Positions 13,425-52,587 are shown, numbered from the stretch's first letter. The stretch: 52,587 bases of DNA from Clostridiales bacterium (GCA_031297485.1 JAISYE010000187.1:1-52587), one strand, 5' to 3'. Notes: a model not told the origin generated them from the sequence alone. Numbers and translations are program-made.

Positions 13425-13800
13425 TAAAACCAACGGACACCTCACCGTTAGGGACTCTGCCCCATAGGCGCGAACTTAGGCTTGAGAAAGGTCAAAACCT
13501 TAAGACCTTGGGGCTCTGCCCCAAACCCCGCTGGGGACTTCGCCCCCAGACCCCTTCTTAAGGGCGGCGAGTGTAGCGCTTTTTGATGCAGGTACAGCCT
13601 TTTCAAGAAAAGGGACTGGTTATTTTTTTCTTAAGTTCGCGCTTATGTGACTTCACCCCCAGACCCCTTCTTTTGCGCGTCAAGTACAGCATTTTTGATG
13701 CAGATACAGCCTTTTCAAAAAAAAGGATTGTTTATCTTTTTTTAAGTTCGCGACTATAGGGCAGAGCCCCAAGGTCTTAATCTTTTGACCTTTATCATTC
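13425..13800. repeat. Composite mosaic repeat (copy B2): ~32-bp inverted arms around two tandem ~110-bp units
   Basis: The arms GGTCAAAACCTTAAGACCTTGGGGCTCTGCCC (13490-13521) and GGGCAGAGCCCCAAGGTCTTAATCTTTTGACC (13759-13790) are inverted copies. The internal units ~13543-13645 and ~13655-13757 are direct copies. Confidence 0.85.
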
Positions 13801-13849
13801 CTTAGATCGGATCGTTCGTGAATACATCACCATTTTTCGCAATAATCCT

Positions 13850-22257: not shown

Positions 22258-24384
22258 CTATTCGTATTGGATTTGCACCAATTCATAATCCTTTAGTTCC
22301 GGCAGCGTGATGGCGGCGGCATTCCCGTCAATAAAATAATTGAGCTTAGTGCGCTCGGGGAGCGCAACAACATTCTTTACCTTTTTGCCATAAAACTTTA
22401 CCCGAAATTCCATATTGTAGATCGGAACATTGGGCAATTCAGCCTGATAGTTCAGGATATGGACCATAGAACTATCTTCTTTGTCGAATCTGGTGAGTTC
22501 AACGGATGGATAGCCAGACAACTGAGTGCAGTATTCGGGGGAGATTCTGCGAATCATGTTATAAAAAACCTCCCTCTGTGTAATATGCCGTCCAATCTCA
22601 AGCATGGCGGCGGAGTAAATAACCCTCCCCTTGCCGTAGGCATGTTCAATCACAGCGGGGCGTTGTGTAAAACTGCCCGGCGGTGTTGTCAGAAGGCTGG
22701 CATACCTGTCCTCCGAAGGGGAATCATATGGCAGAGTCAATGTGCCCAATACGATTGCGTCCTTTTCCGCCTCAATCTCCATCTGGCTATCCGCCACCGT
22801 AACCGGATACCGCCGGGAAAACACCGCCGGGAACTCACCTCTGCTCTGTTGTGTGGGCGACACATAGGTAAAATTCCAATCCGTTTCCCCTTTTAGCCGG
22901 ATACCGAGCACATCCGCGAGCATGCACTTGCCAGTATAGGCACCATCCTCCAAAATAGTGGCCGTCTCCTTGCTGGCATAGAGATTGCCGCCGTCCGCGA
23001 CAAATTCACGGACGGCCCGCATTTCCTCCTCATCCATCATGACGACGTTGGAGAGAATCAGAACCTTGTATCTGTTCAAATCCCCCAGGTTCTTTTTTGT
23101 GACAATACCATAGGGAATATGGAACATGGTAAGGCTCTTCGCCGCTTCCGCAACGCTCCTCATGTGGGCGTCCCCGCGTTGGTCCATGATGCTGGAATGG
23201 TTCCATTCAAACACGCAGCCAACATCCTTCGTTTCCCTGCCATTCCACGATTTATCGAATTTGGAATGGAAGCTGTAATATATACCCACATCCTGCCGAA
23301 AATCCCCGCCAAGGTAAGGCTCGTAACGCTCGATTTTATCAAAAACCTTCCGCATCGTTCCGTAATTGTACTCATGAACAGTCCCGACAGGGTCCACTTG
23401 GTCGATGATAGTAAACGCGCCGTCATGCATTATGGTATTGTACGCGATTTGGAACAATTCCCCTTCAGTCCTGGTTATGACATGCTCGTGGATATTGGGG
23501 TAATTCCAGCAATTGATCCTCTCATAGGGCTTTATATTGCTTAAGGCATAAAACAGCTTGCTTGAGAAGGATAAGCCGTAGCGATCGCTGTAGAGGTCCT
23601 GGGACATAAAGTCCCAACAATCCGCCAGTTCTACGGAGGAGCCGGAGACCCAATCTGAGGAAATTGGCAGGGATTGCTGCGCGAATTTCATCCCCGGCTT
23701 TCTGGAGCGAATCGTGTCTGTGATCTCCTGGCAGAATTCTTTCAGCCACCTTTGCCTGATGCGGATGAACTCCACGAATTCGGGGTCAGTCCAGTTGATG
23801 ATTCGCGGTATTTCCCTTCCGGCTTCCGCCCGAAATCGCTTTTGACAGTTTCCGCAGTAACAGATTGCGGGCCAAAATACCATGTCCGGCCAAACGCCCT
23901 CAAAATCGTAGTTTTCACAGATTTCCGCCAATTCGGCAAGCGAATGTTTACGATAACCAGGGTCGTTTAAGCAGCAAGTAGCAAAGCGCGCTTCTCCGTT
24001 TTTTGTTCCCACCCTTTGCTTTACCGCCCTGCCATCCGCCCTGACAATCCTAGACTCCGGATGCTTTTCCCAGTAATCCGCCACAAAAATGAAAACGTAA
24101 TAGATTACCGCATCCAGGCCGCGTTTATGCAACGCGTCGATAGTTTCCTTAAGCATATCACACCCCGCAAAAGCGCGGTGCATGACACCCCCAGCCTTGG
24201 AAGGCCAGTTAGTCAGTCCGGAATGCGTATTCGCCATGAATGTGGCCGCCGTGGCGTTACTTTGAAAACAACACTCGGCGAATTGCTCCGGATCGAACTT
24301 TGACAAAAACTCATCATTCCAGTCGTCAACGTGGAAATCCAGAAAATATCTTCTGCGTGATCTCAAATGCCATTCATTGTTCAT
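22258..24384 (-). CDS. Putative glycoside hydrolase (GHL6-like N-terminal barrel plus GH42M-like middle domain)
   Basis: ORF track, 708 aa. The N-terminus (YFLDFHVDDWNDEFLSKFDPEQFAECCFQSNATAATFMANTHSGLTNWPSK) resembles, from memory, the hypothetical glycosyl hydrolase 6 family. It is the first gene downstream of the operators. Confidence 0.5.
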   Translation of the reverse strand: MNNEWHLRSRRRYFLDFHVDDWNDEFLSKFDPEQFAECCFQSNATAATFMANTHSGLTNWPSKAGGVMHRAFAGCDMLKETIDALHKRGLDAVIYYVFIFVADYWEKHPESRIVRADGRAVKQRVGTKNGEARFATCCLNDPGYRKHSLAELAEICENYDFEGVWPDMVFWPAICYCGNCQKRFRAEAGREIPRIINWTDPEFVEFIRIRQRWLKEFCQEITDTIRSRKPGMKFAQQSLPISSDWVSGSSVELADCWDFMSQDLYSDRYGLSFSSKLFYALSNIKPYERINCWNYPNIHEHVITRTEGELFQIAYNTIMHDGAFTIIDQVDPVGTVHEYNYGTMRKVFDKIERYEPYLGGDFRQDVGIYYSFHSKFDKSWNGRETKDVGCVFEWNHSSIMDQRGDAHMRSVAEAAKSLTMFHIPYGIVTKKNLGDLNRYKVLILSNVVMMDEEEMRAVREFVADGGNLYASKETATILEDGAYTGKCMLADVLGIRLKGETDWNFTYVSPTQQSRGEFPAVFSRRYPVTVADSQMEIEAEKDAIVLGTLTLPYDSPSEDRYASLLTTPPGSFTQRPAVIEHAYGKGRVIYSAAMLEIGRHITQREVFYNMIRRISPEYCTQLSGYPSVELTRFDKEDSSMVHILNYQAELPNVPIYNMEFRVKFYGKKVKNVVALPERTKLNYFIDGNAAAITLPELKDYELVQIQYE

Positions 24385-24407
24385 GGCCGTAACCTCATTT
24401 CATGATA

Positions 24408-24421
24408 TTAAACCGGTTTAA
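24408..24421. promoter_or_regulatory. LacI-type operator candidate O1
   Basis: Perfect 14-bp palindrome TTAAACCGGTTTAA, 24 nt upstream of the ATG at 24384. Confidence 0.6.
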
Positions 24422-24460
24422 TTTATTGGCTTGTTCATGCTCTCGCCTCGCCTCATAATG

Positions 24461-24474
24461 TTAAACCGGTTTAA
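24461..24474. promoter_or_regulatory. LacI-type operator candidate O2
   Basis: The same perfect palindrome TTAAACCGGTTTAA, 12 nt downstream of the P1 -10 box. Confidence 0.6.
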
Positions 24475-24486
24475 TTTGTTGACTCT

Positions 24487-24516
24487 ATTATATCTCTTAT
24501 GATTTACGAATGTCAA
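24487..24516 (-). promoter_or_regulatory. Promoter P1 (proximal) of the glycan locus
   Basis: Minus strand: consensus TTGACA (24516..24511), 18 nt spacer, consensus TATAAT (24492..24487). Confidence 0.65.
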
Positions 24517-24630
24517 TAGCTATTTTTGTGCTTTTATTATTTTATGCTTTTTCAGTCTCAAGGTCTATAAGTATTCTGCGTGATTTCAAATGTCATTTAT
24601 TGTTTGTAATCGCAATTTCATTTTGCAAAA

Positions 24631-24644
24631 TTAAACCGGTTTAA
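24631..24644. promoter_or_regulatory. LacI-type operator candidate O3
   Basis: Third perfect TTAAACCGGTTTAA, 13 nt downstream of the P2 -10 box. Confidence 0.6.
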
Positions 24645-24657
24645 TTTTGTTAGCTTT

Positions 24658-25002: not shown

Positions 25003-25095
25003 TTAGGACGTGTTTGAAAACTGGATTCCAGCGCGAAATTTACGCGGTTTCATTCAAAATTTCGCGCTTTTAGGAATTTTCAAACACGCCTTAAC
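25003..25095. repeat. Palindromic hairpin element, family A (copy A3, short form)
   Basis: TTAGGACGTGTTTGAAAACTGGATTCCAGCGCGAAATT...AAATTTCGCGCTTTTAGGAATTTTCAAACACGCCTTAA. It lacks the GTCGAGC core and is nearly identical to the copy at 44453. Confidence 0.9.
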
Positions 25096-40738: not shown

Positions 40739-41524
40739 CTACATAGCGCTTTTGTAATGTTTCAGTCCAAACCGCCAGAACCACAGCGCGAACACTGTGA
40801 AAAGAGCGGCGGCGCAAACCGCGTGAACCAGTCCGGCAGGCGTCAAAGTTTTTGTAACAAATTGGGTTGGGACTGTGGCCATAATTCCGTATGGCATAAT
40901 AAAGTAAAATAAAATCTTGAAGCCGCCCTTGTAAATAATGCCGGGGATTTTGAAATTAAGCGTAAGCAAGTCGCCCTCAAGCCTGTCGATTGCGGCGGCA
41001 GAGATAACGAAAAACGGGATTGTCCGCAAAATAAGCTCCATGTCGTAATACAGCAGCGTCATTATAAGCACAAAGGCCACATATCCGGCGATAAGAGGCG
41101 CGGTAAGCGGGGCGCCTTCAACCGACAGGCCGTAGGCGATAATAGCGCCGGAAAGACACAAGAGCGGAACCGAACCCGGGTCGGCGTTTTCAAAGGTCAG
41201 CCTGAACAACGGGTTCACAGGCTTAGTTATATACAGATCAAGCCCGCCGCCCCTGATCAGCTCCGGTATATTAATCAAACCGAAAAAATACACCGTCATG
41301 TTAATAGCGTTAATCATCGAAAACGTGCCGACGAAAACCAGCATTTGCCCCCGGCTCCAACCGCCTATGGCGTCTACTTGCCCGTAAATAACGGAAAAGG
41401 ACAGCAGCTGCATAAGGAACAGCGTGCCGTCGGCGAAAAAAGCCCCAAAGAAACTCAGCCGGAACACCATCATATGGGAGAGCCTCAGCTTAAGCAGCAA
41501 CAAAATAAACCGTAAATTTTTCAT
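40739..41524 (-). CDS. ABC-2 family transporter permease (ABC2_membrane_6/DUF990-like)
   Basis: The ORF track gives 40739..41602. I trimmed it to the ATG at 41524 (MKNLRFILLLLKLRLSHMMVFRLSFFG...), which overlaps the upstream stop as ATGA. Confidence 0.7.
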   Translation of the reverse strand: MKNLRFILLLLKLRLSHMMVFRLSFFGAFFADGTLFLMQLLSFSVIYGQVDAIGGWSRGQMLVFVGTFSMINAINMTVYFFGLINIPELIRGGGLDLYITKPVNPLFRLTFENADPGSVPLLCLSGAIIAYGLSVEGAPLTAPLIAGYVAFVLIMTLLYYDMELILRTIPFFVISAAAIDRLEGDLLTLNFKIPGIIYKGGFKILFYFIMPYGIMATVPTQFVTKTLTPAGLVHAVCAAALFTVFALWFWRFGLKHYKSAM

Positions 41525-42315
41525 ATGCCCACCCCGTCGAATCTTACTCTTAAACGGTTGTAGGTAAAACAGCAAATAACCGCCATTACCGCGGCCCAAC
41601 AACAGAGAGCCGAAAGGCCGAAAACCCCTTCCGACGCTTCCGCCTGGCCGGTTATAAGCATGGCGGGCATATATGTCACATAGGTAAACGGCAGAAAACG
41701 CAAAACAGCGCGCGCGTTTACCGGCAGAAGCGCCAGCGGCACAGCCGCGCCAGTCGCGAATTCAATAACCGAGCCTTGCAGATGCAGAAAAAATCCCACG
41801 TCCTGAAATTTAAACGCGAGTATGCCAATAAAAAAATGGTAGCTTACCATGAAGGTTGTTCCCGCGATAATCATTACGCCAGCCAAGGCGATTTGCGCGG
41901 GATTTTCCGAAAACATCATGTCAACGCGGAACAAAAGAGCGCAGGCAATGGCCGCTATTATCGAAAATATGGCGTAATAGCCTGCCGCGCCAAAGGTCTG
42001 CGCTAAAAAATGTTTCAGCGGATGGGTCGGAATTACCATGTACTTGGCAAAGGTTCCGCCGCGTATGCGCGCCGAAACCTCGCCGCTGACCCCGGCGGTG
42101 TCAATAGCCGCCAGAAACGAGCTTATGACGTAATAGCTTAACATGGCCTGAAACGTGAACCCGCCGACAGTTTCGCGCCCGTCAAATATCGCGCCCCACA
42201 TAATATAGGCGAACATGACGCGCCAAATTACCGAAAGCGCCGTCAGGGACACGTCGAAACGGTATACTATTTGCGTCTTGAAAAATATCTTGGCTACTTC
42301 CATATATTTTCTCAC
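41521..42315 (-). CDS. ABC-2 family transporter permease (second subunit)
   Basis: ORF track, 264 aa, polytopic. GTG start overlapping the ATPase stop (GTGA). Confidence 0.7.
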   Translation of the reverse strand: MRKYMEVAKIFFKTQIVYRFDVSLTALSVIWRVMFAYIMWGAIFDGRETVGGFTFQAMLSYYVISSFLAAIDTAGVSGEVSARIRGGTFAKYMVIPTHPLKHFLAQTFGAAGYYAIFSIIAAIACALLFRVDMMFSENPAQIALAGVMIIAGTTFMVSYHFFIGILAFKFQDVGFFLHLQGSVIEFATGAAVPLALLPVNARAVLRFLPFTYVTYMPAMLITGQAEASEGVFGLSALCCWAAVMAVICCFTYNRLRVRFDGVGI

Positions 42316-43313
42316 GCGCCAGCCTCCGTTTCATTATTAAGGCCCTTTGCCGCGTAGATCTTCTCGACGGTTTTTCCTATTTCTTCTTCCTCAATGGAGA
42401 TATCGGCGATGTCATAATCCCGCGTTATCTGGGCCGCAATTTTACCGGCTTGGTCCTTCGGCAAGATAAAGACCGCCCTGTACGGACTTCGCTCCAGCGT
42501 TTCCGCGCCTTCCGGAGGTATAAAATCAGTCTCGCGGCCGAAGGTAATTGTAATCTTTTTCCGCGACTGATACATGTCAAACAGGCTGTCTGTCCCGCCG
42601 TCATAGATTTTTTTGCCGCCGTTTATGACGACGCAGCGGGGGCAGAGCGTCCGCACATCTTCCATATAATGAGACGTAAGGATTATTGTCGTGGACTTCC
42701 GGCTGTTCACCTCGCGCAAAAAGCCGCGCATATTCCGCTGGGTCGCCGCGTCAAGGCCGATAGTGGGCTCGTCAAGGAACAACAAGCCCGGGTTGTGTAA
42801 AAGCGCCGCAATAAGCTCCAGTTTCATCCGTTCGCCTAAAGACAGCGTCCGTACCTGAACGTTCAGAAGTTCCGAAACGCCAAACAATTCCACAAAGTCG
42901 TCCACGTTGCGCTTGTAGGTTTTTTCCGGGATGCCGTAAAGCTCTTTGAACAACCGGAAGGTGTCCATGGGCGTTAATTCAAAAAAAAGCTGGCTCTTCT
43001 GACCCATGACAACAGCGTATTGCTTTTTAAACAAAGTCTCCAGTTTGTTCGGATAAAAGCCGAGCACGGAAATCTCGCCCGAGGAGGGCGCGATTATGCC
43101 GGTCAGCATCTTGACCAGCGTCGTCTTGCCCGAGCCGTTCGGCCCGATAAGCCCGATAAATTCCCCCTGCTCGACACAAAGGTCAAAATTCGCCACAGCG
43201 GTTTTGTCAATAAATTTGCGGTTAAACAGTGATTTGACGCTGCCGGTGAGGCCTGGCTCTTTCTCGAAGATTCGGAAAGTTTTGGTGAGGTCTTTTGTGT
43301 GGATTAAACTCAA
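42312..43313 (-). CDS. ABC transporter ATP-binding protein (ABC-2 type, with C-terminal accessory domain)
   Basis: ORF track, 333 aa. Walker A is GPNGSGKTT, the signature motif is LSLGERMK and Walker B is LLFLDEPT. TTG start with an AGGAGGA RBS. Confidence 0.85.
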   Translation of the reverse strand: MSLIHTKDLTKTFRIFEKEPGLTGSVKSLFNRKFIDKTAVANFDLCVEQGEFIGLIGPNGSGKTTLVKMLTGIIAPSSGEISVLGFYPNKLETLFKKQYAVVMGQKSQLFFELTPMDTFRLFKELYGIPEKTYKRNVDDFVELFGVSELLNVQVRTLSLGERMKLELIAALLHNPGLLFLDEPTIGLDAATQRNMRGFLREVNSRKSTTIILTSHYMEDVRTLCPRCVVINGGKKIYDGGTDSLFDMYQSRKKITITFGRETDFIPPEGAETLERSPYRAVFILPKDQAGKIAAQITRDYDIADISIEEEEIGKTVEKIYAAKGLNNETEAGA

Positions 43314-43956: not shown

Positions 43957-44404
43957 TTAAATAAATTTGATTTGTCTAAAAGCGATAAAAACACAAGCAA
44001 GTTGTAATAAATCCATATAAGTGAAAGCATATTTCTCATAACGCACAAGAATTTTGCGAAAGCGATTTAACCATGAGAAAACTCTTTCCATAACCCAACG
44101 ACATGCCTTAAATTCCGGATTGTTTTCAATATTTTGCTTTTCTTCACCACGAGATACTACATGTGGAATATAACCTCTAAGCACTATGGCTTCAAGCGCT
44201 GCTTCACCGTAGTAACCCTTCCGCGCACAGATTTTCCGTTGCTCCCTTCGAATAATCAATTTCAGGGCGCTCTACTTCTATATTATCCATGACTGTTTCT
44301 ATTTGCGTAACTTCATACCTGTTCGCTCCTGTCAATACTATGGACAATGGCACTCCGTTTCCATCAACTAGTATGTGCCTCTTGCTTCCATTCTTACCAC
44401 CCAT
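43957..44404 (-). pseudogene. IS5-family DDE transposase remnant (N-terminally truncated and frameshifted)
   Basis: Two track ORFs (44204..44404 and 43957..44259) together read GSKRHILVDGNGVPLSIVLTGANRYEVTQ ... NLCA/RKGYYGE ... GYIPHVVSRGEE ... CRWVMERVFSWLNRFRKILVRYEK. This is the conserved C-terminal two-thirds of IS5-group transposases. The frame changes near 44225-44240. Confidence 0.8.
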
Positions 44405-44452
44405 CCGTATGAGCCAAACTCTTGGGGGAGCGCTTCCATTGTATCCCTGTTC

Positions 44453-44545
44453 TTAGGACGTGTTTGAAAACTGGATTCCAGCGCGAAATTGCAGCGGTTT
44501 CATTAGAAATTTCGCGCTCTAAGGAATTTTCAAACACGCCTTAGC
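44453..44545. repeat. Palindromic hairpin element, family A (copy A5, short form)
   Basis: TTAGGACGTGTTTGAAAACTGGATTCCAGCGCGAAATTGCAGCGGTTTCATTAGAAATTTCGCGCTCTAAGGAATTTTCAAACACGCCTTAGC. It abuts the truncated 5' side of the IS5 remnant. Confidence 0.9.
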
Positions 44546-44606: not shown

Positions 44607-44759
44607 TCATTTATCGCCTTTTTGCATAATAAACTTTAATTGGGGATAAACTCTAAGCTTTTCGCGGTAGAAAAGGTTTTTTATCGAATTTTTAAACCCC
44701 AGCTCTTTTTTGTAGTATTCAAAAGTCTTTGACAAACCTCGTACGCTTATCATAGTCAT
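44607..44759 (-). pseudogene. 50-codon N-terminal stub of an ABC-2 type ATPase (paralog of 42312..43313)
   Basis: Reverse translation from the ATG at 44759 gives MTMISVRGLSKTFEYYKKELGFKNSIKNLFYREKLRVYPQLKFIMQKGDK then a stop. It aligns with MSLIHTKDLTKTFRIFEKEPGLTGSVKSLFNRKFIDKTAVANFDLCVEQGE and ends before the Walker A motif. Confidence 0.65.
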
Positions 44760-44798: not shown

Positions 44799-45800
44799 TT
44801 ATGGTACCTCTGATTCCACACCGTCCGCCCAATGTATACGTTCCTCAATCCAGCCGTCAAAATATTCGCTGATTTCCCTTTCAGGCTCCGTCTTTGTGAA
44901 TCCCTCAAGGAAAGCGGTGAGGTAGAAAAAGAACATATGATAGCAATAATAAGCCAAACGCTCAGGGCGAAGCGCGTATTCCACTCTGTGGCGCCTCAGC
45001 GCTTCATTGAAGGCAGTCCGCGCCCACGGACTGCAGCACATAACCCACGCGTCCCGCTCGGGCGGGGCGAGAAGCGCGTCGTCCCAGTCGATAATCCGAT
45101 AATCATCCCCGTTTACAAGCAGATTTCCTCCCGCGTCGCCATGTGTCAGATAGAAATGCGATGTGTCGTTTTTACATTCGCAAGCAAAGCGCCGCAATTT
45201 CCGCGCCCGTTGTTCCAACAATCCCCTGTGCCCCTCCAATACCTTATCGACCGCACCGCCCCTGTCACATGCTTCCCACAGTGTAAAAAAGCGTTCGGCA
45301 CTTTCGTCAGAAAATTTTGCGCGTGGAATATCAAGGTCATTTACAGGAACAGCGTAAACCCGCGCCAGCATATCATACTCAGGCGGCTTTGTCGCGTCTG
45401 TTTCAATACTCGTGCCATCGATCCAATCAAAGATTCCAAGTACCGCGCCCTCAAAATTTGTAAACAGCCGGCCGTCAACCGTTTTTACGATATGGCTGAT
45501 GAAATTAATACCATTCTGCCACAAATGGTCTATGATGAGAAAACTGCGGGCATAGACATCCTTATGTGTGGTGTAGTCCAACTTTAAAAAATAGCCGCGG
45601 TCTTCACATTCAAGCCTCCATGTTTCCCCGTAATAGCCGCGCGGAGCAGGCGCGATTCCAATGGGGTCCAAACGGTATTCCGCGCGGACAGACTCACATA
45701 GACGGCGCAAATATTCCCCGCCGCGTGATAAAATGTGCGAGGCGGAAACTTGAAGGCGGCTGTTATAAGAATTCATTTTTTCGCATCCTTTCGCGGACAT
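44799..45800 (-). CDS. Phosphotransferase enzyme family protein (APH/choline-kinase-like small-molecule kinase)
   Basis: ORF track, 333 aa. The catalytic loop is LTHGDAGGNLLV and the metal-binding motif is IIDWDD. The alternative ATG at 45776 (MNSYNSRL) has an AAAGGA RBS. Confidence 0.75.
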   Translation of the reverse strand: MSAKGCEKMNSYNSRLQVSASHILSRGGEYLRRLCESVRAEYRLDPIGIAPAPRGYYGETWRLECEDRGYFLKLDYTTHKDVYARSFLIIDHLWQNGINFISHIVKTVDGRLFTNFEGAVLGIFDWIDGTSIETDATKPPEYDMLARVYAVPVNDLDIPRAKFSDESAERFFTLWEACDRGGAVDKVLEGHRGLLEQRARKLRRFACECKNDTSHFYLTHGDAGGNLLVNGDDYRIIDWDDALLAPPERDAWVMCCSPWARTAFNEALRRHRVEYALRPERLAYYCYHMFFFYLTAFLEGFTKTEPEREISEYFDGWIEERIHWADGVESEVP

Positions 45801-45996
45801 ATCCTGCGAACAGTTAGATTCTTCACATCCGCAGTCCGCAAACGGGCGAACTGAAATTTGTGCCCGTCCGCCGTATACTAACCAGTATAGACCTTTTCTC
45901 TATAATAGGCAAGACGTGAGCGCGCAAAAAAATTATACTCTGGAACGCGCCCAAATTTTGAAAGGCCCAAAATTACAAACTAAACGAGGAGAGATT

Positions 45997-46605
45997 ATGT
46001 CAACTAAACCACCAGCAAAGCCAACTGAATTTGCATATGTCCGCGTGTCGAGCGCAGACCAGAACGAGGACAGGCAGCTCGACGCGATGACCGCCCTCGG
46101 CATACCGGCGGAGCGTATTTTCATTGACAAGCGCAGCGGCAAGGACACCAACCGCCCGCAGCTTCAGCGGCTTTTAATGACAGTCAAGAGCGGCGACACC
46201 ATAATTGTCGAATCGGTGAGCCGATTGGCCCGTAACACGCGTGATTTACTCGACCTCGTGGAACAGCTCGCCGCGACAGGGGTTGACTTCATAAGTCAAA
46301 AGGAAAACATAGACACGACCACGCCGACAGGCAAGTTTATGCTGACGGTGTTCGGCGCGGTTGCGGAACTGGAGCGCAGTTACATTAAGCAGCGCCAAGC
46401 CGAGGGGATTTCGTCGGCCAAACGACGGGGCGTTCATATGGGCAGGCCCGTTAAGCAAGCCCCTGACGGCTTTGGCGAACTCGTCAAACGATGGGAGCGC
46501 AAGGAAATCCCGCTTCACAAAGTCCTTTCCCACTGCGGCATAAGCGAGTCTACGTTCTACCGCCGGCTTGCCGAGCACCGCCGTCAACGCAAGGTCCGGC
46601 GGTAA
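45997..46605 (+). CDS. Small serine recombinase (resolvase/invertase family, Hin/Gin-like)
   Basis: The ORF track gives 45916..46605. I trimmed it to the ATG at 45997, which has a GAGGAGAG RBS. The catalytic N-terminus is FAYVRVSSADQNEDRQ. Motifs VESVSRLARN and ELERSYIKQRQ are present, with a C-terminal HTH (GISESTFYRRL). At 202 aa it is invertase-sized. Confidence 0.9.
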   Translation: MSTKPPAKPTEFAYVRVSSADQNEDRQLDAMTALGIPAERIFIDKRSGKDTNRPQLQRLLMTVKSGDTIIVESVSRLARNTRDLLDLVEQLAATGVDFISQKENIDTTTPTGKFMLTVFGAVAELERSYIKQRQAEGISSAKRRGVHMGRPVKQAPDGFGELVKRWERKEIPLHKVLSHCGISESTFYRRLAEHRRQRKVRR

Positions 46606-46610
46606 TCCGC

Positions 46611-46632
46611 TGTCAAAAGGTGTACCTTTTGA
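46611..46632. repeat. Left inverted repeat / crossover-site candidate (IRL)
   Basis: TGTCAAAAGGTGTACCTTTTGA. The internal 9+9 palindrome TCAAAAGGT / ACCTTTTGA flanks the central dinucleotide GT. Confidence 0.9.
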
Positions 46633-46683
46633 TTGTGATCTGTTTTGTACTTATATCACCCATAAGCACACACTTTTTAATAC

Positions 46684-46712
46684 TTTATACCACAAAAATC
46701 CTTCAAATGCAA
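46684..46712 (-). promoter_or_regulatory. Promoter inside the invertible segment, currently facing the recombinase gene
   Basis: Minus strand: TTGCAT (46712..46707), 17 nt spacer, TGgTATAAA extended -10 (TATAAA at 46689..46684). Confidence 0.6.
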
Positions 46713-46779
46713 GAAAATTTTTCACGTATAGAACATTTTTTGGAATTTTTTGCACGCGCAGAACGGCAGGCCGTCTTTC

Positions 46780-46801
46780 TCAAAAGGTACACCTTTTGAC
46801 A
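46780..46801. repeat. Right inverted repeat / crossover-site candidate (IRR)
   Basis: TCAAAAGGTACACCTTTTGACA is the exact reverse complement of 46611-46632. The central dinucleotide here reads AC. Confidence 0.9.
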
Positions 46802-46820
46802 AAAACATAGGAGGTTAAGT

Positions 46821-47513
46821 ATGAAAAAAACAGTTCCCGCGCTGGCGCTGGCTGTACTGCTGGCCTTTTTGGCAGGGTGCAAAGCGCAAGCCGCGGCAAC
46901 CGCGCCGAACTCAGAACCGCAAACGGCGGGCCAAGAGCCTGCGTCAAGCGCGCGGCCCGCAGCAGCCGCGCAAAGAGAAGCATTGCCGGAACCCGCGCCG
47001 CCGTCCGCGGAAGAACAGCCGGCAGAAGGCGGAGGCGGCAATTCCGCGCGGCCCGCGCATAAGGACTCATCAGACGGACCGCCGTCCGCGGAGTCGCAAT
47101 ACTGGCGCGTGACAGTCAATGACGTTCAGTCATCCGCGGGTTTAAGCGGCACAATTGATATGGTCCAGTACGACGGCTCGATAAGCCAGTCCGCCGTAAA
47201 CGCGGCGCCGAAAGACGGCTGCGCGTTCCTGCTGTTGTTTTTGACCATTGAAAAAACCCAAGGAGGTAAAGCGCTGTTCTCGTGGAAAGACACGTACATC
47301 CTCGACGAGAGCGGAGGCAAGTATCAACGGCACGAAAACGACACGTTTCTGGATAATGTCGGATACTCGCCGCGCTTAAAAGCTACCGACCAAGCGCTCG
47401 GCGCGGAAACGGGCTGGGCCTGCTATGAAGTATCCGCCGGCGCCGGAGCGCTGTACCTTGTTCACGACGGCGGGGACGGCGAGATAAGGATATCCATTGG
47501 GGAGGTACGCTGA
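46821..47513 (+). CDS. Lipoprotein with low-complexity linker and DUF4352-like C-terminal domain
   Basis: ORF track, 230 aa. Signal peptide plus lipobox (MKKTVPALALAVLLAFLAGCKAQ), an Ala/Pro/Glu-rich linker, and a C-terminal beta-rich domain (GCAFLLLFLTIEKTQGGKALFSWKDTYILDESGGKY). GGAGG RBS. Confidence 0.75.
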   Translation: MKKTVPALALAVLLAFLAGCKAQAAATAPNSEPQTAGQEPASSARPAAAAQREALPEPAPPSAEEQPAEGGGGNSARPAHKDSSDGPPSAESQYWRVTVNDVQSSAGLSGTIDMVQYDGSISQSAVNAAPKDGCAFLLLFLTIEKTQGGKALFSWKDTYILDESGGKYQRHENDTFLDNVGYSPRLKATDQALGAETGWACYEVSAGAGALYLVHDGGDGEIRISIGEVR

Positions 47514-47514
47514 C

Positions 47515-49473
47515 TTGGCATCTAAAACTAAACGTTTAGGACAGCTTTCGTTGATTGCGATAGCCTTGCTTATTGCCGGTACGGCGGCTTTTAGAGCGCT
47601 CACGCGCCGCGAAACTATCCCAGAGCCGTCCGCGCAAGGGCCGCCGCCGGTTGAGCAGCCGCAGGCGCCGGAACCAGCGCCGCCAGTTCAACCTGAAACA
47701 GTTCCGGAAGCCACAGCCGCGCCATTGGCGGAGCCAGAACCGGAGCAGACCGCAGACAGCGCCGCGTCACTGGACCCGATACTCGGCGAGATACTCTCGG
47801 CTGTGCGGGCGCTCGCGACCCCCACACCGGAACCCGAACCCACGCCCGACCCCAACGCTCCCATAGACGGTTTTCAGGAAATACTGCGGTATGTGTACGA
47901 ACAAATCGAAAAGCAAGCCTCTGTTGACGCGGATTTGCTTTCCGAACTGGACAGCGGCGCGTACACATTCAGCGGCCCGCTGATAGTTGTTGACCCTTAC
48001 GGATATGCTCCGTTAACAGCCGCAGCCGCGTTTGAAACCGCGGAACCTTCGAAAATATCCGTGCTTGTCCAGGGCAAAACGCCGGCGGCGGATATAGCGT
48101 TTGAGTTTGACGAATACCGCACAAAACATATTGTGCCAATATACGGCCTGTACGCCGACAAGCTCAACACTGTAACACTTACGGCGGTTGACAAAAGCGG
48201 ACGGATATCGGTCACCTCCGTTGAAATCCGCACGGACGCCCTGCCCGAACGTCTGGCGAAATTTGTTATTACAACCTACGCCGCGCAGCCTGATAAGTAC
48301 AGCTCTGGCCTGAATTTTTCCTCCGTTAACAAATACGCTTATGATATTAACGGCGATTACCGTTGGATAATAAACGACCGTGGAGCAGCTGTGACATATT
48401 GGAATTATTCGGAAGGCACATATATATGTCCTATGGAAAGCGCTAACCAGTCGCTGCTTGTAGAACGCAATACGCTCGGCAAATATTTGCGCTTGTGGTA
48501 CGCCCCCAGCGGCGGTGTAGGAATACATCACGATATCGAAGAAATGCCTGGCGGCAATTTGCTTCTGACCACAAGTTCGGCCGGCAGCGGCATAATAGTT
48601 GGCGATACCTGCGAAGACGTGGTTTTGGAATTAGACGCGCAGACCGGCGAGATTGTCAACTATCTGGATTTCATCAAAATTTTACAGCGTTTCCGGATGT
48701 CCCTGATGATAGCTAACGAAGCGGGTGTAAACTGGGACTGGCTCCATATGAATAAGGTCACTTACCATAACGGCAGCATAGTAATTTCAAGCCGGCACCA
48801 AAGCACAGTGGCAAAAGTTACTTGGCCGCAAGGCGATATCGAGTGGATTCTCGGCAGCCATTACGCCTGGTCGCCATACTGGCAGCAGTTTTTGCTGACT
48901 CCTACAGGCGATAATTTTGAATGGCAGCACGCGCAGCATTTTCCTATTGTGCTGCCTGACTTTGACGAAAACCCTGACACGGAAGATATTATGCTGTTTG
49001 ACAATGGCAACCAGCGGTTTGCGGAAGACTTTGAACTGCAGCGCCAGATTCAAGCAAACGAAGCTGCCGCGCCAGAAAATTACTCCCGCATTGTGCATTA
49101 CCGTATAGACGAGAAGGCAATGACTGTCGAACAAGTCTGGCAATACGGCAAGGAAAGAGGCGCCGAATGGTTTGCCAGCCGCTGCGGCAACGTGGCTCTG
49201 CTGGACAATGGCAGCCGTATAGGCAGCTGTATCATCGAAAGCGGCGCGCCGCCGCACTCAATTTTAAGCGAGGTGTCGGAAAGCGGCGAACTGGTGTGGG
49301 AAGCCTATACATCAACCAAGGACGCCAAGAGCACGCTGTACGAGTACAGGGCTTACCGGGAACCGCTGTATCGGAACTCGGACAACGACCTGCGCGTAGG
49401 CGAAAGCACGATTAACCTTGTTCCGCGGGACATTCTCATGAAATACGGATTTATAACCGAGGAGGGCGACTAA
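47515..49473 (+). CDS. Aryl-sulfate sulfotransferase (ASST family), N-terminal membrane anchor plus Pro-rich linker
   Basis: The ORF track gives 47497..49473. The in-frame TTG at 47515 follows a GGGGAGG RBS. It aligns with my recollection of E. coli AssT at LIVVDPYGYAPLTA, VPIYGLYADKLNTVTL, NWDWLHMN, IVISSRHQSTVAKV, IEWILG, IMLFDNGN and YSRIVHYRIDEKAMTVEQVWQYGKERG. Confidence 0.9.
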   Translation: MASKTKRLGQLSLIAIALLIAGTAAFRALTRRETIPEPSAQGPPPVEQPQAPEPAPPVQPETVPEATAAPLAEPEPEQTADSAASLDPILGEILSAVRALATPTPEPEPTPDPNAPIDGFQEILRYVYEQIEKQASVDADLLSELDSGAYTFSGPLIVVDPYGYAPLTAAAAFETAEPSKISVLVQGKTPAADIAFEFDEYRTKHIVPIYGLYADKLNTVTLTAVDKSGRISVTSVEIRTDALPERLAKFVITTYAAQPDKYSSGLNFSSVNKYAYDINGDYRWIINDRGAAVTYWNYSEGTYICPMESANQSLLVERNTLGKYLRLWYAPSGGVGIHHDIEEMPGGNLLLTTSSAGSGIIVGDTCEDVVLELDAQTGEIVNYLDFIKILQRFRMSLMIANEAGVNWDWLHMNKVTYHNGSIVISSRHQSTVAKVTWPQGDIEWILGSHYAWSPYWQQFLLTPTGDNFEWQHAQHFPIVLPDFDENPDTEDIMLFDNGNQRFAEDFELQRQIQANEAAAPENYSRIVHYRIDEKAMTVEQVWQYGKERGAEWFASRCGNVALLDNGSRIGSCIIESGAPPHSILSEVSESGELVWEAYTSTKDAKSTLYEYRAYREPLYRNSDNDLRVGESTINLVPRDILMKYGFITEEGD

Positions 49474-49474
49474 A

Positions 49475-50002
49475 ATGGCACATATACTTATTTTGCTGGT
49501 CATACTGGCGCCGGGATTTTTGGCGGGGCTGTACTATATGAATATTACGGACAGAAAAAAAATCCCGCCGCTTGAAGCAATCGGCCTGTTCGCAGCCTTC
49601 GCGTTTCTGTGTAATTTATTGCCAATGCTGATAACATGGCTGAAATGGAGCGGCGAACCCTTGAGCATACTCGGTTACGGCGGAGTATTTAACCAGTTGC
49701 AATTCTTGGTAAAATATATGCTGCTTCAGTGCGTATCCGCTGTGCTTCTTCCCTGGGCGGCGGCGTTCTTGTCGATGTTTTCGGCGGAGAGGGTCTTTGA
49801 CAAATTGATTGACCTTATGGCAGCCCAGTTTGCTGAAAAGTCGCGGGAGCGTAAAGCGCGTCGCGCGCTTGAAAAGGCGGAGCGGGAAGCCGCGGTTAAA
49901 GCGCTGGAAGAATCGGAAAAACAGGCGGAGGAAAAAGAAGCCCCAAGGGAAACTGAACCGTCTATGACAGAGGAGGAAACAGCCAATGAGAAAGCTGATT
50001 AA
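49475..50002 (+). CDS. Hypothetical membrane protein with a charged coiled-coil-like C-terminal tail
   Basis: ORF track, 175 aa, with about three or four hydrophobic helices followed by KSRERKARRALEKAEREAAVKALEESEKQAEEKEAPRETE. GAGGAGGG RBS. It overlaps the next gene by 17 nt. Confidence 0.65.
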   Translation: MAHILILLVILAPGFLAGLYYMNITDRKKIPPLEAIGLFAAFAFLCNLLPMLITWLKWSGEPLSILGYGGVFNQLQFLVKYMLLQCVSAVLLPWAAAFLSMFSAERVFDKLIDLMAAQFAEKSRERKARRALEKAEREAAVKALEESEKQAEEKEAPRETEPSMTEEETANEKAD

Positions 50003-52109
50003 AACGGCCTTAATCTGCCTTGCGGTAATTATCACACTCGCGGCAGCGGGATTCGCCGTGATACGCTCCGGCGTACTTGTGCGCCCGACGGAGAAATCCC
50101 TCGCGCGGCTGACCGAGGTGCCGGAATATGACATTCTGACCGCGCAATTTGAACGTGAGGCAGAGATACTCGCGGACTATAACGCCGCCGAATATTCCTT
50201 TGGAGACCCGTATGTGATACTGGACCCTTATGGCATGAACCCGCTTTCCGCGCTGGTAATGTTTGAGACGGACAAACCCGCGGACGTAAGCGTCATGGTA
50301 CAGGGCGACGACGAGTACAGCACCTTCGGCTACGAGGCAAAGCGGGTAAGCGGCCGCGCGGAAATCCCGGTAATCGGGCTGTACGCCGGGCGCGGCAACA
50401 TCGTTACGCTTGCGGCCGACTACGGCGGCGGTGATATAGAGACAAAGGAACTGACAATCACGACCGAACCGCTGCCGGCTGACTTCCAGTCATACAGCCT
50501 TGTGACGTCACAGCCCGCGGAAATGGAGCCTGGAATAACGCTGTTTATCCCGTGCTTTGAACATTCGTATACAGCGCTTGTGGACAGCAACGCCGAAGTC
50601 CGCGGTTATCTGACAAACACGCGGATGGCACACGGCACCGCTGTAATCCGGCTGGAAAACGGCAACTATCTCGCCACTGGCGACGAATACAGGCAATTGC
50701 CGTATAATATGAAGTCATTATTTGAATTTAACTGGCTTGGGAAAATATTCAAGGAATACGAAGTCCCGAACGGCGTACATCATAATATACGCGAACTGCC
50801 AAACGGTGATTTTCTGTGTGTGTCCAATAATGCCTATATGTTCCAGACGGGCACCCGTGAGGACGTTGTGATTATTGTTGACAGGGAGACAGGCGGCGTT
50901 AAAAAAGAGTATGATTTCCGCGGCATTATTGACGAAACCCGGGACCCGTACCACCACTTTCACCCGGATGTTAAAAATGTGCTGAACATTGACTGGATGC
51001 ATACCAACACCGCTATTTACGACGAAACTGGGAACGCGATTATCGTATCTTCACCTACACAGAGCCAGGTAATCTCCATAAACGCGGATACCTCGGAGAT
51101 TAACTGGATTCTAGGCCCGCGCGAAGGCTACGACAGCGAGGCCGCGCGGTTCCTGAAGCAGTACCTGCTTACGCCTGTGGGCGCCGGCTTTGAGTGGCAG
51201 TGGTGCCAGCACGAACCCGAAATTTTGCCGGATTTTGACAGCGACCCTGATACAATCGACTTGCTGCTGTTCGACAATGGACAGAGCAAAAGTTTTACCA
51301 AGGAGGGCGCGGTCTTGCCAGAAAACAACTATTCCCGCGGCGTACAGTTCCGTATAAACCAACGGGAAAAAACTGTTGAGCAAATTTGGGAATACGGTAA
51401 GGAACGCGGCTCAGATATGTATGCGACTTTCCTCGGCGACGCCGACTATTTGCCAATAACCGGGAATAGGCTCATCGACTGCGGAGGGCAGGTACGGCAA
51501 GGGGAAACGCCGACGGATGATATTCTCGGCGGCGTGTTTGGAACTACGGCCACCCGGTCCCGTATTGTCGAAGTTACGGAAAGCGGCGAAGCCGTCTTTG
51601 AAGTCGCTGTCCGCGAAATACCGCCGGACAATTCCGCTGAAACTTACCAGGCTGAACGTATGCCGCTGTACTCTGCCCCGAGTTTTGACTATAGACTGGG
51701 CGCGGCAAAAGGGGAACGGCTCGGAACGGACGAAGTTAACAGACGCCTTGTGGATGTTACGCCCCCTAATTTCTATATCGGTAAATTGTCCGCGGAGTTC
51801 CGCGATATACACCGTGAGGGCAGTCGCCTTATTATGGACGGCATGATTCTGCTCAATGGCGAGACTTACATGGTCGGCGGCGGTCAGGTCGTGCTGCGTG
51901 GCAAAAGCGGGAATGTGTACGTCTACGCGACAAATACCGCGATAAACGGCTTCTTCTTCGCCAGTATCGACCTTAATGAGATACAAGCGGACGAATACTC
52001 TATTGACATTATGGGCGCGGTCGTCGCGGACGGCAGTAATGATGCCTTATATGGCAAACGCACGCAGGGTTATTTCAGAACAGAGTACAAAATCACTAAG
52101 GCCAGTTAA
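49986..52109 (+). CDS. Aryl-sulfate sulfotransferase (ASST family) paralog, N-terminal membrane anchor
   Basis: ORF track, 707 aa. Supporting segments: VILDPYGMNPLSALVMFETDKPADVSVMVQG, IPVIGLYAGRGNIVTL, HHNIRELPNGDFL, NIDWMHTNT, IIVSSPTQSQVISI, INWILGP, LLLFDNGQ and YSRGVQFRINQREKTVEQIWEYGKERG. Confidence 0.9.
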   Translation: MRKLIKTALICLAVIITLAAAGFAVIRSGVLVRPTEKSLARLTEVPEYDILTAQFEREAEILADYNAAEYSFGDPYVILDPYGMNPLSALVMFETDKPADVSVMVQGDDEYSTFGYEAKRVSGRAEIPVIGLYAGRGNIVTLAADYGGGDIETKELTITTEPLPADFQSYSLVTSQPAEMEPGITLFIPCFEHSYTALVDSNAEVRGYLTNTRMAHGTAVIRLENGNYLATGDEYRQLPYNMKSLFEFNWLGKIFKEYEVPNGVHHNIRELPNGDFLCVSNNAYMFQTGTREDVVIIVDRETGGVKKEYDFRGIIDETRDPYHHFHPDVKNVLNIDWMHTNTAIYDETGNAIIVSSPTQSQVISINADTSEINWILGPREGYDSEAARFLKQYLLTPVGAGFEWQWCQHEPEILPDFDSDPDTIDLLLFDNGQSKSFTKEGAVLPENNYSRGVQFRINQREKTVEQIWEYGKERGSDMYATFLGDADYLPITGNRLIDCGGQVRQGETPTDDILGGVFGTTATRSRIVEVTESGEAVFEVAVREIPPDNSAETYQAERMPLYSAPSFDYRLGAAKGERLGTDEVNRRLVDVTPPNFYIGKLSAEFRDIHREGSRLIMDGMILLNGETYMVGGGQVVLRGKSGNVYVYATNTAINGFFFASIDLNEIQADEYSIDIMGAVVADGSNDALYGKRTQGYFRTEYKITKAS

Positions 52110-52240
52110 GGCGTGTTTGAAAATTCCTAAAAGCGCGAAATTTCGAATGAAACCGCCGCAATGATAGTCGAGCTTGCTGACGCTTCGCGCCACGTCGAGC
52201 AAGCTCGACTATCGGAATCTAGTTTTTAAACACGCCCTAA
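52106..52240. repeat. Palindromic hairpin element, family A (copy A6, expanded form)
   Basis: TTAAGGCGTGTTTGAAAATTCC ... GATAGTCGAGCTTGCTGAC ... GTCGAGCAAGCTCGACTATC ... TTTTTAAACACGCCCTAAG. The core is present twice in inverted orientation. The first TAA of the element is the stop codon of the ASST gene. Confidence 0.9.
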
Positions 52241-52384
52241 GAAGCATTTTTTCTTGACAAACGCTCGAAGCGAGTCTATGATATAGGGCAAATGAGTACA
52301 ATTTTTAGTATCTTACGGCAAATCCCGAGGTTCGTGAGTATAACTATTCGCGGTATATACTGTGACACAAGGAGAACTGTAACG

Positions 52385-52587
52385 ATGAGGAAACTCAAGT
52401 ATACGTTTAAGTCCGACATCTTGTTTAAGATGACGTTCGTGAAGTATAAACACCTGCTGAAACGCTTAGTCGCGGCAGTCTTGAAGATACCCGTAAAGGC
52501 GATAGAGGAGTTCGTAATCCTCAACACTGAAATCATACCGGAGGCGGTTGATAAAAAGTTCTGCCGTCTTGACATACATCTCAAGGT
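52385..52587 (+). CDS. Rpn-family recombination-promoting nuclease / PD-(D/E)XK transposase-like protein (N-terminal part, runs off the window)
   Basis: Absent from the ORF track because it has no stop in the window. The ATG at 52385 follows an AGGAGA RBS. MRKLKYTFKSDILFKMTFVKYKHLLKRLVAAVLKIPVKAIEEFVILNTEIIPEAVDKKFCRLDIHLK fits the TIGR01784-type N-terminus (FK..F, ILN.E, K..RLDI). Confidence 0.7.
   Translation, partial: MRKLKYTFKSDILFKMTFVKYKHLLKRLVAAVLKIPVKAIEEFVILNTEIIPEAVDKKFCRLDIHLK

Follow-up and report, generated by a model that had tools for sequence, protein, structure and literature searches.

A candidate promoter inverton upstream of a four-gene arylsulfotransferase operon in an uncultured Clostridia bacterium

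The stretch of DNA considered here, referred to below as the window, comprises 52,587 nucleotides from a Clostridiales bacterium (GCA_031297485.1 JAISYE010000187.1:1-52587), and it carries, between positions 45997 and 52109, a gene for a serine recombinase, a short segment enclosed by inverted repeats, and an operon of four genes, two of which encode proteins of the arylsulfotransferase (ASST) family. An earlier sequence-only reading had proposed that the repeats bound an invertible promoter which controls this operon. Our computational analyses of the locus point to a promoter-inversion switch that would govern a surface-tethered ASST module and that appears to have been assembled in its OFF orientation. 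The features of the locus, numbered from the first letter of the window, are as follows.

45997-46605, plus strand: serine recombinase (invertase) gene, 202 amino acids (aa); Pfam Resolvase PF00239, E 3.5e-43; motif YVRVSSADQ; C-terminal helix-turn-helix.
46611-46632, no strand: left crossover site, hix-like; core TCAAAAGGT-GT-ACCTTTTGA at 46613-46632, center GT at 46622-46623.
46633-46779, no strand: putative invertible segment, 147 bp, with an A/T-rich tract, promoter and leader; it aligns with the inverton segments of loci L055 and L112.
46684-46712, minus strand: putative segment promoter, with -35 TTGCAT (46712-46707), a 17-nt spacer ending in TGG, and -10 TATAAA (46689-46684).
46780-46801, no strand: right crossover site; center AC at 46789-46790, the complement of the left center.
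46821-47513, plus strand: lipoprotein gene, 230 aa; open reading frame (ORF) with lipobox LAGC (Cys20), a Pro/Ala/Glu-rich linker and a C-terminal DUF4352-like domain.
47515-49473, plus strand: ASST-1, 652 aa; N-terminal hydrophobic segment, Pro/Glu/Ala spacer, immunoglobulin (Ig)-like domain and beta-propeller.
49475-50002, plus strand: small membrane protein, 175 aa; three transmembrane segments and a Glu/Lys-rich tail, predicted by hydropathy.
49986-52109, plus strand: ASST-2, 707 aa; N-terminal hydrophobic helix, Ig-like domain, propeller and an extra C-terminal beta-sandwich (~575-707).
52108-52240, plus strand: nested, strongly structured inverted-repeat element just past the ASST-2 stop; RNA fold -63.4 kcal/mol, z = -8.1.

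The best match of the recombinase among proteins of solved structure is the Gin DNA-invertase (4M6F/3UJ3; E 1.5e-30), and it extends across residues 13-191, covering both the catalytic and the DNA-binding parts. The recombinase ORF is intact and contains the catalytic Ser motif, its ATG at 45997 is preceded by GGAGAG, and its end lies 5 nt from the left site. The two crossover sites are perfect 22-bp inverted repeats with 147 bp between them, an arrangement for which 0 occurrences are expected by chance (100 shuffles), and each arm is near-palindromic, TCAAAAGGT-NN-ACCTTTTGA, in the layout seen in hix/gix crossover sites. The locus thus shows two of the features that characterize Hin/Gin-type systems, namely a small serine recombinase next to the sites and dyad-symmetric inverted sites with complementary asymmetric 2-bp centers. 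The half-site TCAAAA also resembles the hix half-site TTATCAAAAACC.

Between the right repeat and the first start codon there are 19 nt, which hold nothing but a ribosome-binding site. Because this is all that precedes the first gene, the operon has no private promoter past the switch, and transcripts of the operon must hence originate in, or pass through, the invertible segment that is linked to the recombinase. The tight packing of the four genes that had been described earlier is borne out, with each ORF recovered where it had been placed and with gaps of 1 nt, 1 nt and -17 nt. The stop codon of gene 1 (TGA, 47511-47513) is separated by a single nucleotide from TTG 47515; the earliest possible start of gene 2 is TTG 47497, and TTG 47515 appears to be the better start because it has GGAGG 9 nt upstream and lies 1 nt past the gene 1 stop. 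One nucleotide likewise separates the stop of gene 2 (49471-49473) from the ATG of the membrane-protein gene at 49475, which in turn is overlapped over 17 nt (49986 to 50002) by the ASST-2 gene. A GGAGG Shine-Dalgarno sequence is present 8-10 nt upstream of all four genes (9-10 nt for genes 3 and 4). The four genes look like a single translationally coupled unit that is presumably co-transcribed. Terminator-like matches within the operon region show no excess (7, versus 9.8 expected from shuffles), and the stable nested hairpin element at 52108-52240 probably marks the end of the operon. This element is one of three copies in the window of a sequence resembling a repetitive extragenic palindrome (REP) or a miniature inverted-repeat transposable element (MITE) (GGACGTGTTTGAAAA ... 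TTTTCAAACACGCC), the others being at 1480-1601 and 25003-25094, and the copy behind ASST-2 encloses a second hairpin of 16 bp. A search of Rfam across 45700-52587 gave zero matches.

The two smaller proteins are also as the sequence-only reading had described them: the N-terminus of the first gene product, MKKTVPALALAVLLAFLAGC, holds the lipobox that identifies it as a lipoprotein, and hydropathy predicts three transmembrane segments in the small membrane protein. The lipoprotein has no match to PF11611 (DUF4352) even at E <= 1; it is ~40% identical (E ~1e-39) to an ortholog in locus L004 which passes the Pfam threshold for DUF4352 (29.9 versus 25.9 bits). For the small membrane protein no Pfam family passes threshold, and in NCBIfam both the lipoprotein (E 0.009) and the membrane protein (E 0.007) have sub-threshold matches only. 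Together with the N-terminal segments of the two ASSTs, these predictions support the view that all four products of the operon are exported or membrane proteins.

The segment between the sites aligns with four segments that lie beside the two closest recombinases (73% identity; L055, L112), and its TTGCAT-17-TGgTATAAA falls exactly in register with the TTGCAA-17-TATAAT, TTGTAT-17-TGtTATATT and similar promoters of these relatives. The promoter pattern that is conserved in the related invertons is TTGnnn-17-TGnTAnnnT. In the window the segment promoter points at the 3' end of the recombinase gene and away from the operon. Because this is the only family-typical promoter of the segment and it lies on the minus strand, the operon is read as having been assembled in the OFF orientation, a call based on the alignment to relatives and not on promoter scores. 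A general promoter scan found nothing inside the segment.

The crossover sites of the window belong to a much wider group of elements. A scan of metagenome contigs for the core TCAAAAGGTNNACCTTTTGA yielded at least 120 loci (L007-L126), many of them from human-gut assemblies and from datasets that have also yielded termite-gut metagenome-assembled genomes (MAGs). Among the matches listed, to which the following counts refer, 81 site pairs lie 80-260 bp apart, and 77 of the 81 have complementary centers versus ~1/16 by chance; recombinase homologs (33-73% identical) lie beside many of these pairs; and a strong sigma-70-type promoter is found on one strand only in 62 of 78 segments. Where a recombinase is adjacent (33 segments), the promoter is directed toward it in 27 and away from it in 6, and five of these six lie beside the recombinase 3' end. 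The bias of 27 versus 6 fits OFF-biased populations and is no proof of switching. Judged from these sequence patterns, the hix-like promoter invertons are a large family in gut and termite-gut Firmicutes, and no description of this site family was found in the literature examined. The cargo genes are diverse, with no ASST cargo among the family members listed, and the segments of loci with related recombinases (L027, L030, L033 and others) show no similarity in either orientation.

Some members of this family have additional structure. In L055 (1313-1711) and L112 (98-532), the closest recombinases (73%) are each followed by two tandem invertons with four sites, in which the centers are TT/AA and then AC/GT and all four promoters face the recombinase. 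In other loci (e.g., L078:1935-1985, L008:963-1130, L032:389-580 and L014:10357-10530) the sites lie within long perfect palindromes that reach into both flank and segment; such palindromes would exist in the assembled orientation only, since inversion separates their halves, and they could act as orientation-dependent hairpins or terminators. No such palindrome is present at the left site of the window, and at the right site 5 of 7 positions are matched. A reading of the recombinase as a resolvase acting on res sites was considered and rejected, as the two sites stand in inverted orientation downstream of the recombinase gene and, in 62 of the 78 family members examined, flank a segment that carries a promoter.

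The two large proteins of the operon had been likened block by block to AssT of Escherichia coli, and this likeness is confirmed: every motif block listed earlier is found in the translations of both, and both match E. coli AssT (3ELQ/4P04) at E ~1e-26 (phmmer). Searches with Pfam hidden Markov models (HMMs), which the sequence-only reading had suggested, place both in PF05935 (Arylsulfotrans; E 5.6e-72 for ASST-1 and 1.2e-75 for ASST-2) and PF17425 (Arylsulfotran_N, the ASST Ig-like N-domain; E 1.8e-18 and 3.2e-15, respectively), with scores well above the gathering thresholds. An AlphaFold (AF2) model of ASST-2 (predicted local distance difference test score, pLDDT, 86; predicted template modeling score, pTM, 0.87) matches 4P04/3ELQ with a Foldseek E of ~1e-27 and a template modeling score (TM) of 0.67-0.69. 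The ASST fold, i.e., an N-terminal Ig-like beta-sandwich followed by a six-bladed beta-propeller, is thus indicated by HMM for both proteins and by predicted structure also for ASST-2, the fold evidence for ASST-1 being by HMM only. One hydrophobic segment preceded by basic residues is present at the N-terminus of each ASST and of their orthologs, and in the ASST-2 model it forms a helix at residues 2-28; from this segment, both ASSTs are predicted to leave the cytoplasm. The spacer of ASST-1 is rich in Pro, Glu and Ala, as had been noted (23 Pro, 14 Ala and 12 Glu in 90 residues). The C-terminal domain of ASST-2 is well modeled (pLDDT 85.5), and in Foldseek searches it matches generic beta-sandwiches only (best E 2e-3, TM 0.45), which give no functional clue; no significant match to a carbohydrate-binding module was obtained in these structural searches (best E 2e-3).

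To compare the active sites, the parts of E. coli AssT that appear in the phmmer output were aligned with both window ASSTs and nine orthologs. In E. coli AssT, His436 is the sulfurylated nucleophile, and the sulfuryl group is coordinated by His252, His356, Asn358, Arg374 and Thr501 (PMC13426309). The corresponding residues are listed below.

His252 (E. coli): H339 in ASST-1, H266 in ASST-2.
His356 (E. coli): H411 in ASST-1, H339 in ASST-2.
Asn358 (E. coli): N413 in ASST-1, N341 in ASST-2.
Arg374 (E. coli): R427 in ASST-1, Pro357 in ASST-2.
His436, catalytic (E. coli): H475 in ASST-1, H409 in ASST-2.
Thr501 (E. coli): Cys in ASST-1, Leu in ASST-2.

The equivalents of His252, His356, Asn358 and His436 are kept throughout the alignment, in both ASSTs and their orthologs, and the catalytic His is invariant in all aligned orthologs. 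Of the sulfuryl-coordinating set, ASST-1 has four of five residues and ASST-2 three of five, with the alignment uncertain around residue 501. Arg374 is retained in ASST-1; of the three ASST-1 orthologs aligned, two have it as well and that of L005 has Tyr. In ASST-2, Pro occupies this position, within the motif SSP[TI]QS, in essentially all of 120 retrieved ASST-2 orthologs. The earlier suggestion that the catalytic residues be confirmed by alignment to AssT therefore has a divided outcome: the catalytic His aligns in both proteins (H475 and H409), but in ASST-2 Arg374 is replaced by Pro357. By fold and catalytic His, ASST-1 and ASST-2 are clear members of the ASST family. ASST-1 has the appearance of a competent enzyme. 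ASST-2 represents a subfamily of its own, in which the sulfuryl pocket is altered and a beta-sandwich is added at the C-terminus; because the Arg374 equivalent is replaced by Pro across its ortholog group, it may not be a standard enzyme. Tyr96 was also considered as a catalytic residue and dropped, since the position is Val or Leu here and lies far from the E. coli active site (PMC13426309).

The neighborhoods of orthologs reveal a conserved module which consists of a three-transmembrane protein of ~100-110 aa, an ASST-1-type protein of 520-610 aa, a lipoprotein of ~170-195 aa and an ASST-2-type protein of ~700 aa. Clusters of these four types of protein occur in L001, L004, L005, L207-L211 and in the majority of L127-L153. 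In a scan of one genome per species, 27 loci (L127-L153) were of ortholog grade (ASST-2 at >= 45% identity), and among these the lipoprotein is adjacent in 23 and a second ASST in 19, several of the others being cut by contig ends. The module spans more than 20 MAGs from Clostridia, Anaerolineae and Thermotogota, its hosts including Christensenellaceae, Oscillospiraceae, Mobilisporobacter, Anaerolineae/Chloroflexia and Thermotogota. Its usual order is membrane protein, ASST-1, lipoprotein, ASST-2, and in the window it is lipoprotein, ASST-1, membrane protein, ASST-2. Module lipoproteins elsewhere share 36-42% identity with that of the window (E 1e-27 to 1e-39), and the window membrane protein matches the ~105-aa three-transmembrane proteins of the module (E 5e-11 to L001). 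The earlier description of the two ASSTs as paralogs thus holds insofar as both are of the ASST family, but they are only 32% identical to one another and appear to be an old pair inside a conserved module, not recent local duplicates. The consistency with which the four proteins co-occur makes it probable that they function as a single assembly. Their arrangement in a module is conserved and seems not to have been described; no paired, anchored four-component ASST module with an Arg374-to-Pro partner was found in the ASST literature examined.

The module often adjoins surface-polysaccharide genes (viz. GT2/GT4 glycosyltransferases, Wzm/Wzt-type ATP-binding cassette (ABC) exporters, Wzz, Bac_transf and epimerases), as in L004, L005, L208, L210 and the P0008 contig, and no such neighbors are present in L207, L209, L211 and the window. 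Lachnospiraceae, Enterocloster and Clostridium (L177-L189) carry tandem pairs of distant ASSTs, 27-30% identical to ASST-2, and because of these pairs, paired ASSTs are common in Firmicutes beyond the four-gene module.

The host of the window is an uncultured Clostridia (monoderm) bacterium and the window is chromosomal DNA; the best matches of its AsnB are to Firmicutes, Clostridia and Lachnospirales (67-73% identity), and nearby genes serve sugar use or encode ABC transporters. A double ABC2_membrane_6 plus ABC_tran transporter lies near the module in L004 and likewise in the window (40739-43313). Between the ABC-2 transporter genes and a gene for a kinase resembling aminoglycoside phosphotransferase (APH), upstream of the recombinase, are frameshifted remnants of an IS5-type DDE transposase (43957-44537; PF01609, PF13586) and an ORF which, judged by eye only, resembles an ABC ATPase N-terminus (44607-44759). 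Elsewhere in the window, an intergenic 51-nt inverted repeat (13471-13809; 86% complementary, enclosing 237 bp) lies between two minus-strand genes and adjoins no recombinase; it may represent a MITE or a further invertible element. The palindrome ATTAAACCGGTTTAAT occurs three times at 24400-24653, upstream of a minus-strand, glycoside-hydrolase-like gene (22258-24384), and these copies resemble operators to which a sugar regulator would bind.

In comparison with known systems, the switch is closest to Hin/hix (the H segment of Salmonella) and Gin/gix (the G segment of phage Mu), with which it shares a serine recombinase of ~200 aa (closest to Gin, E 1.5e-30) and two inverted, imperfectly palindromic sites with complementary asymmetric 2-bp centers, a putative promoter lying inside the segment as in Hin. 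It differs from Hin in that the segment is 147 bp long with the recombinase gene outside it, whereas hin lies within a segment of ~1 kb, and from both in that the cargo is an ASST operon instead of flagellin or tail fibers and that no enhancer was identified.

On the enzyme side, AssT of E. coli CFT073 (Protein Data Bank (PDB) 3ELQ, 3ETS, 3ETT, 4P04-4P07) resembles the window ASSTs in being exported, in its fold (TM 0.67-0.69 with the ASST-2 model), and in its residues H252, H356, N358 and H436, which have equivalents in both window proteins, as R374 does in ASST-1. AssT is a soluble periplasmic homodimer that is encoded in one operon with the DsbL/DsbI disulfide system (PMC13426309). In contrast, the window has two divergent ASSTs, only ~21-22% identical to AssT, with N-terminal hydrophobic anchors or signals, a lipoprotein, a three-transmembrane partner and no Dsb genes; ASST-2 has Pro for R374 and an extra C-terminal domain, and Thr501 is kept in neither protein. 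The characterized aryl sulfotransferases (ASTs) are soluble and periplasmic, with the single exception of the lipoprotein BvASST of Phocaeicola vulgatus, a gut-bacterial, membrane-tethered enzyme that is sulfonated on a conserved His and works with numerous phenolic donors and acceptors; according to its authors, it is the only ASST studied so far that is tethered to a membrane (PMC12809581). Unlike the window proteins, BvASST is itself a lipoprotein (with a signal peptidase II, SPII, signal), is encoded by a single gene and is from a Gram-negative bacterium, whereas in the window the tether would be an N-terminal transmembrane helix, the lipoprotein is a separate non-ASST protein, the enzymes are paired and the host belongs to the Clostridia. 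Cpz4 of Streptomyces (caprazamycin; PDB 9KF4, 9KF6), the second-best structural match to the ASST-2 model (E 1.5e-14), is likewise of ASST type and independent of 3'-phosphoadenosine 5'-phosphosulfate (PAPS). This enzyme of 472 aa is biosynthetic and cytoplasmic and has a preference for a sugar hydroxyl (PMC13426309); at the sequence level it matches ASST-1 only marginally (E 7e-4).

The most likely mechanism for this locus is that promoter inversion turns a surface-tethered ASST module ON and OFF, with the operon now OFF, and on balance we consider it probable. The enzymes would then probably be made by only a fraction of the cells. The 202-aa recombinase would cut both 20-bp sites at their complementary GT/AC centers and flip the 147-bp segment of the 191-bp inverton. 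In the assembled state, the segment promoter would fire toward the recombinase gene, leaving the operon OFF; after inversion it would read through the right site, a leader of ~90 nt and all four genes up to the element at ~52.1-52.2 kb. In the inverted state, the left site would be joined to GAAAGACGGCC... and ...ATCACAA to the right site, and in reads the junctions would appear as the left site followed by GAAAGACGGCCTGCC... and as ...CAGATCACAA followed by the right site. By homology, at least ASST-1 would transfer sulfuryl groups from aryl sulfates to hydroxyl acceptors through sulfo-H475, independently of PAPS and outside the cytoplasmic membrane. Inversion at the locus, promoter activity, co-transcription, enzyme activity and substrates are what we infer, and the phenolic host, diet or drug substrates proposed in the sequence-only reading would be an extrapolation. 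Its claim that the switch controls the operon is supported in part by the perfect repeats, the Gin-like recombinase and the 19-nt gap, but it is qualified by a promoter that faces away from the operon (OFF), by the degenerate -10 of this promoter, and by the fact that inversion is something we infer.

A number of observations weigh against this mechanism. The -10 of the segment promoter (TATAAA, ending in A) is degenerate and non-canonical, and by position weight matrix the promoter scores 7.3 bits on the minus strand, equal to the median of the best scores in 191-nt pieces drawn at random from the contig, versus 7.1 bits for the plus strand. No terminator-like site was found between the recombinase stop at 46605 and the switch. 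Related invertons that have been assembled 3-6 times always show flanks and segment on the same relative strand, in one orientation. For the window itself, an exact-protein look-up of the lipoprotein found no second copy of the locus, which is known from a single contig; the closest ASST-2 relatives are <= 63% identical, and hence there is no second assembly to show the other orientation. As for the enzymes, ASST-2 has no equivalent of Arg374 (Pro357), the Thr501 equivalent is missing from both ASSTs (where the alignment is least certain), NCBIfam has no model naming either protein, and neither ortholog group is represented among the characterized ASTs reviewed in PMC13426309. Lastly, tblastn searches found a recombinase within 8 kb of the module in 0 of the 27 ortholog-grade loci.

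Among all 80 loci covered by these tblastn searches, the only recombinase match is a short serine-recombinase match ~5 kb from a distant (36%) single ASST in L155, and a spaced inverted repeat upstream of the module occurs in 0 of 15 other module loci. Switch control is thus exceptional, and the module in general does not share it. Comparative support for a switch-controlled ASST module is strongest in L004, in which the module (ASST-2 60% identical) has a 190-aa tyrosine recombinase directly upstream (PF00589, E 2.7e-18). Ahead of this recombinase lies an inverted repeat of 21 nt (90% complementary, with 128 bp between the arms), which encloses the promoter TTGACA-17-TAAACT (16.2 bits) pointing at the recombinase and the module; recombinase and repeat lie at L004:4327-5145. 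The window (serine) and L004 (tyrosine) are the only recombinase-linked ASST modules found, and their recombinases belong to unrelated families.

Other explanations of the locus differ chiefly in what the segment does and in what the module acts upon. It is conceivable, but in our view unlikely, that the switch is real but minor, with most transcription of the operon arriving by read-through from the recombinase promoter, and with a weak segment promoter which only modulates the recombinase or gives a modest boost when flipped. A promoter-like CTGAAA-17-TATACT is indeed present upstream of the recombinase gene (45851-45879), and since no terminator intervenes before the switch, read-through could give switch-independent expression of the operon; the background score of the segment promoter also agrees with such a role. 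This promoter is, however, in register with the strong promoters of homologous invertons, and the strong directional promoters in 62 of the 78 family segments among the matches listed suggest that promoter delivery is the job of the element. Even less probable is that inversion has ceased, with the repeats persisting as a relic or serving as a hairpin or as a binding site for the recombinase, and with the operon permanently silent or transcribed by read-through only. The degenerate -10, the single orientation of every related inverton assembled several times, and the 27 of 33 recombinase-adjacent members (matches listed) whose promoter faces the recombinase would all be accounted for in this manner. 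Decay would nevertheless be expected to erode the 22-bp arms, which are 100% identical, the GT/AC centers and the recombinase ORF, all of which are intact; both promoter orientations relative to the recombinase occur across the family, and assemblers report the majority state only.

A further alternative concerns the acceptor. The module could sulfate the envelope polymers or glycans of its own cell, or some other non-phenolic acceptor, with ASST-1 as the catalyst, the other three proteins being non-catalytic or acceptor-handling, and phase variation amounting to surface variation. The change of Arg374 to Pro across the whole ASST-2 ortholog group, the consistent co-occurrence of the four components and the glycosyltransferase, Wzm/Wzt, Wzz or Bac_transf neighbors in L004, L005, L208, L210 and the P0008 contig speak for this possibility, as do the preference of the ASST-type Cpz4 for a sugar hydroxyl (PMC13426309) and the statement that invertons typically control surface structures (PMC11892184). 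We regard it as improbable: the neighbors elsewhere are unrelated (shikimate genes in L209, mixed genes in L211/L207 and sugar-use genes in the window), the C-terminal domain of ASST-2 has no significant carbohydrate-binding-module match (best E 2e-3), and the strictly conserved catalytic His of ASST-2 argues against a dead enzyme. A more specific version, in which the module is an undescribed PAPS-independent machine that uses environmental aryl sulfates to sulfate surface glycans or envelope polymers of its own cell, with ASST-1 as catalyst and three dedicated partners, and which was made phase-variable independently by two unrelated recombinase types, is rather doubtful. If it were true, own-surface sulfation by a phase-variable module would be a new kind of surface variation.

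Promoter inversion upstream of an ASST module, which remains our preferred reading, would place a known enzyme family behind a known type of switch, a combination that is not previously reported. In full-text literature searches no paper joins invertons, invertible promoters or phase variation with ASSTs, and sulfotransferases are unmentioned in the text of the DeepInverton survey, in agreement with the earlier remark that phase-variable control is not known to have been described for ASSTs. What bacterial ASSTs act on in nature, and which physiological roles they play, is still described as poorly understood (PMC13426309), and the present analyses provide several handles on this question, viz. 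a four-component module, predicted to be membrane-tethered, found in multiple phyla, a partner protein without the sulfuryl-binding Arg, and two independent cases of a recombinase-linked switch. The hix-like inverton sites are simple enough to be searched for directly in gut and termite-gut Firmicutes. If the switch works, sulfation could target phenolic metabolites or the cell's own surface, and the capacity for sulfation would be bimodal within a clonal population and would be invisible to surveys of gene presence.

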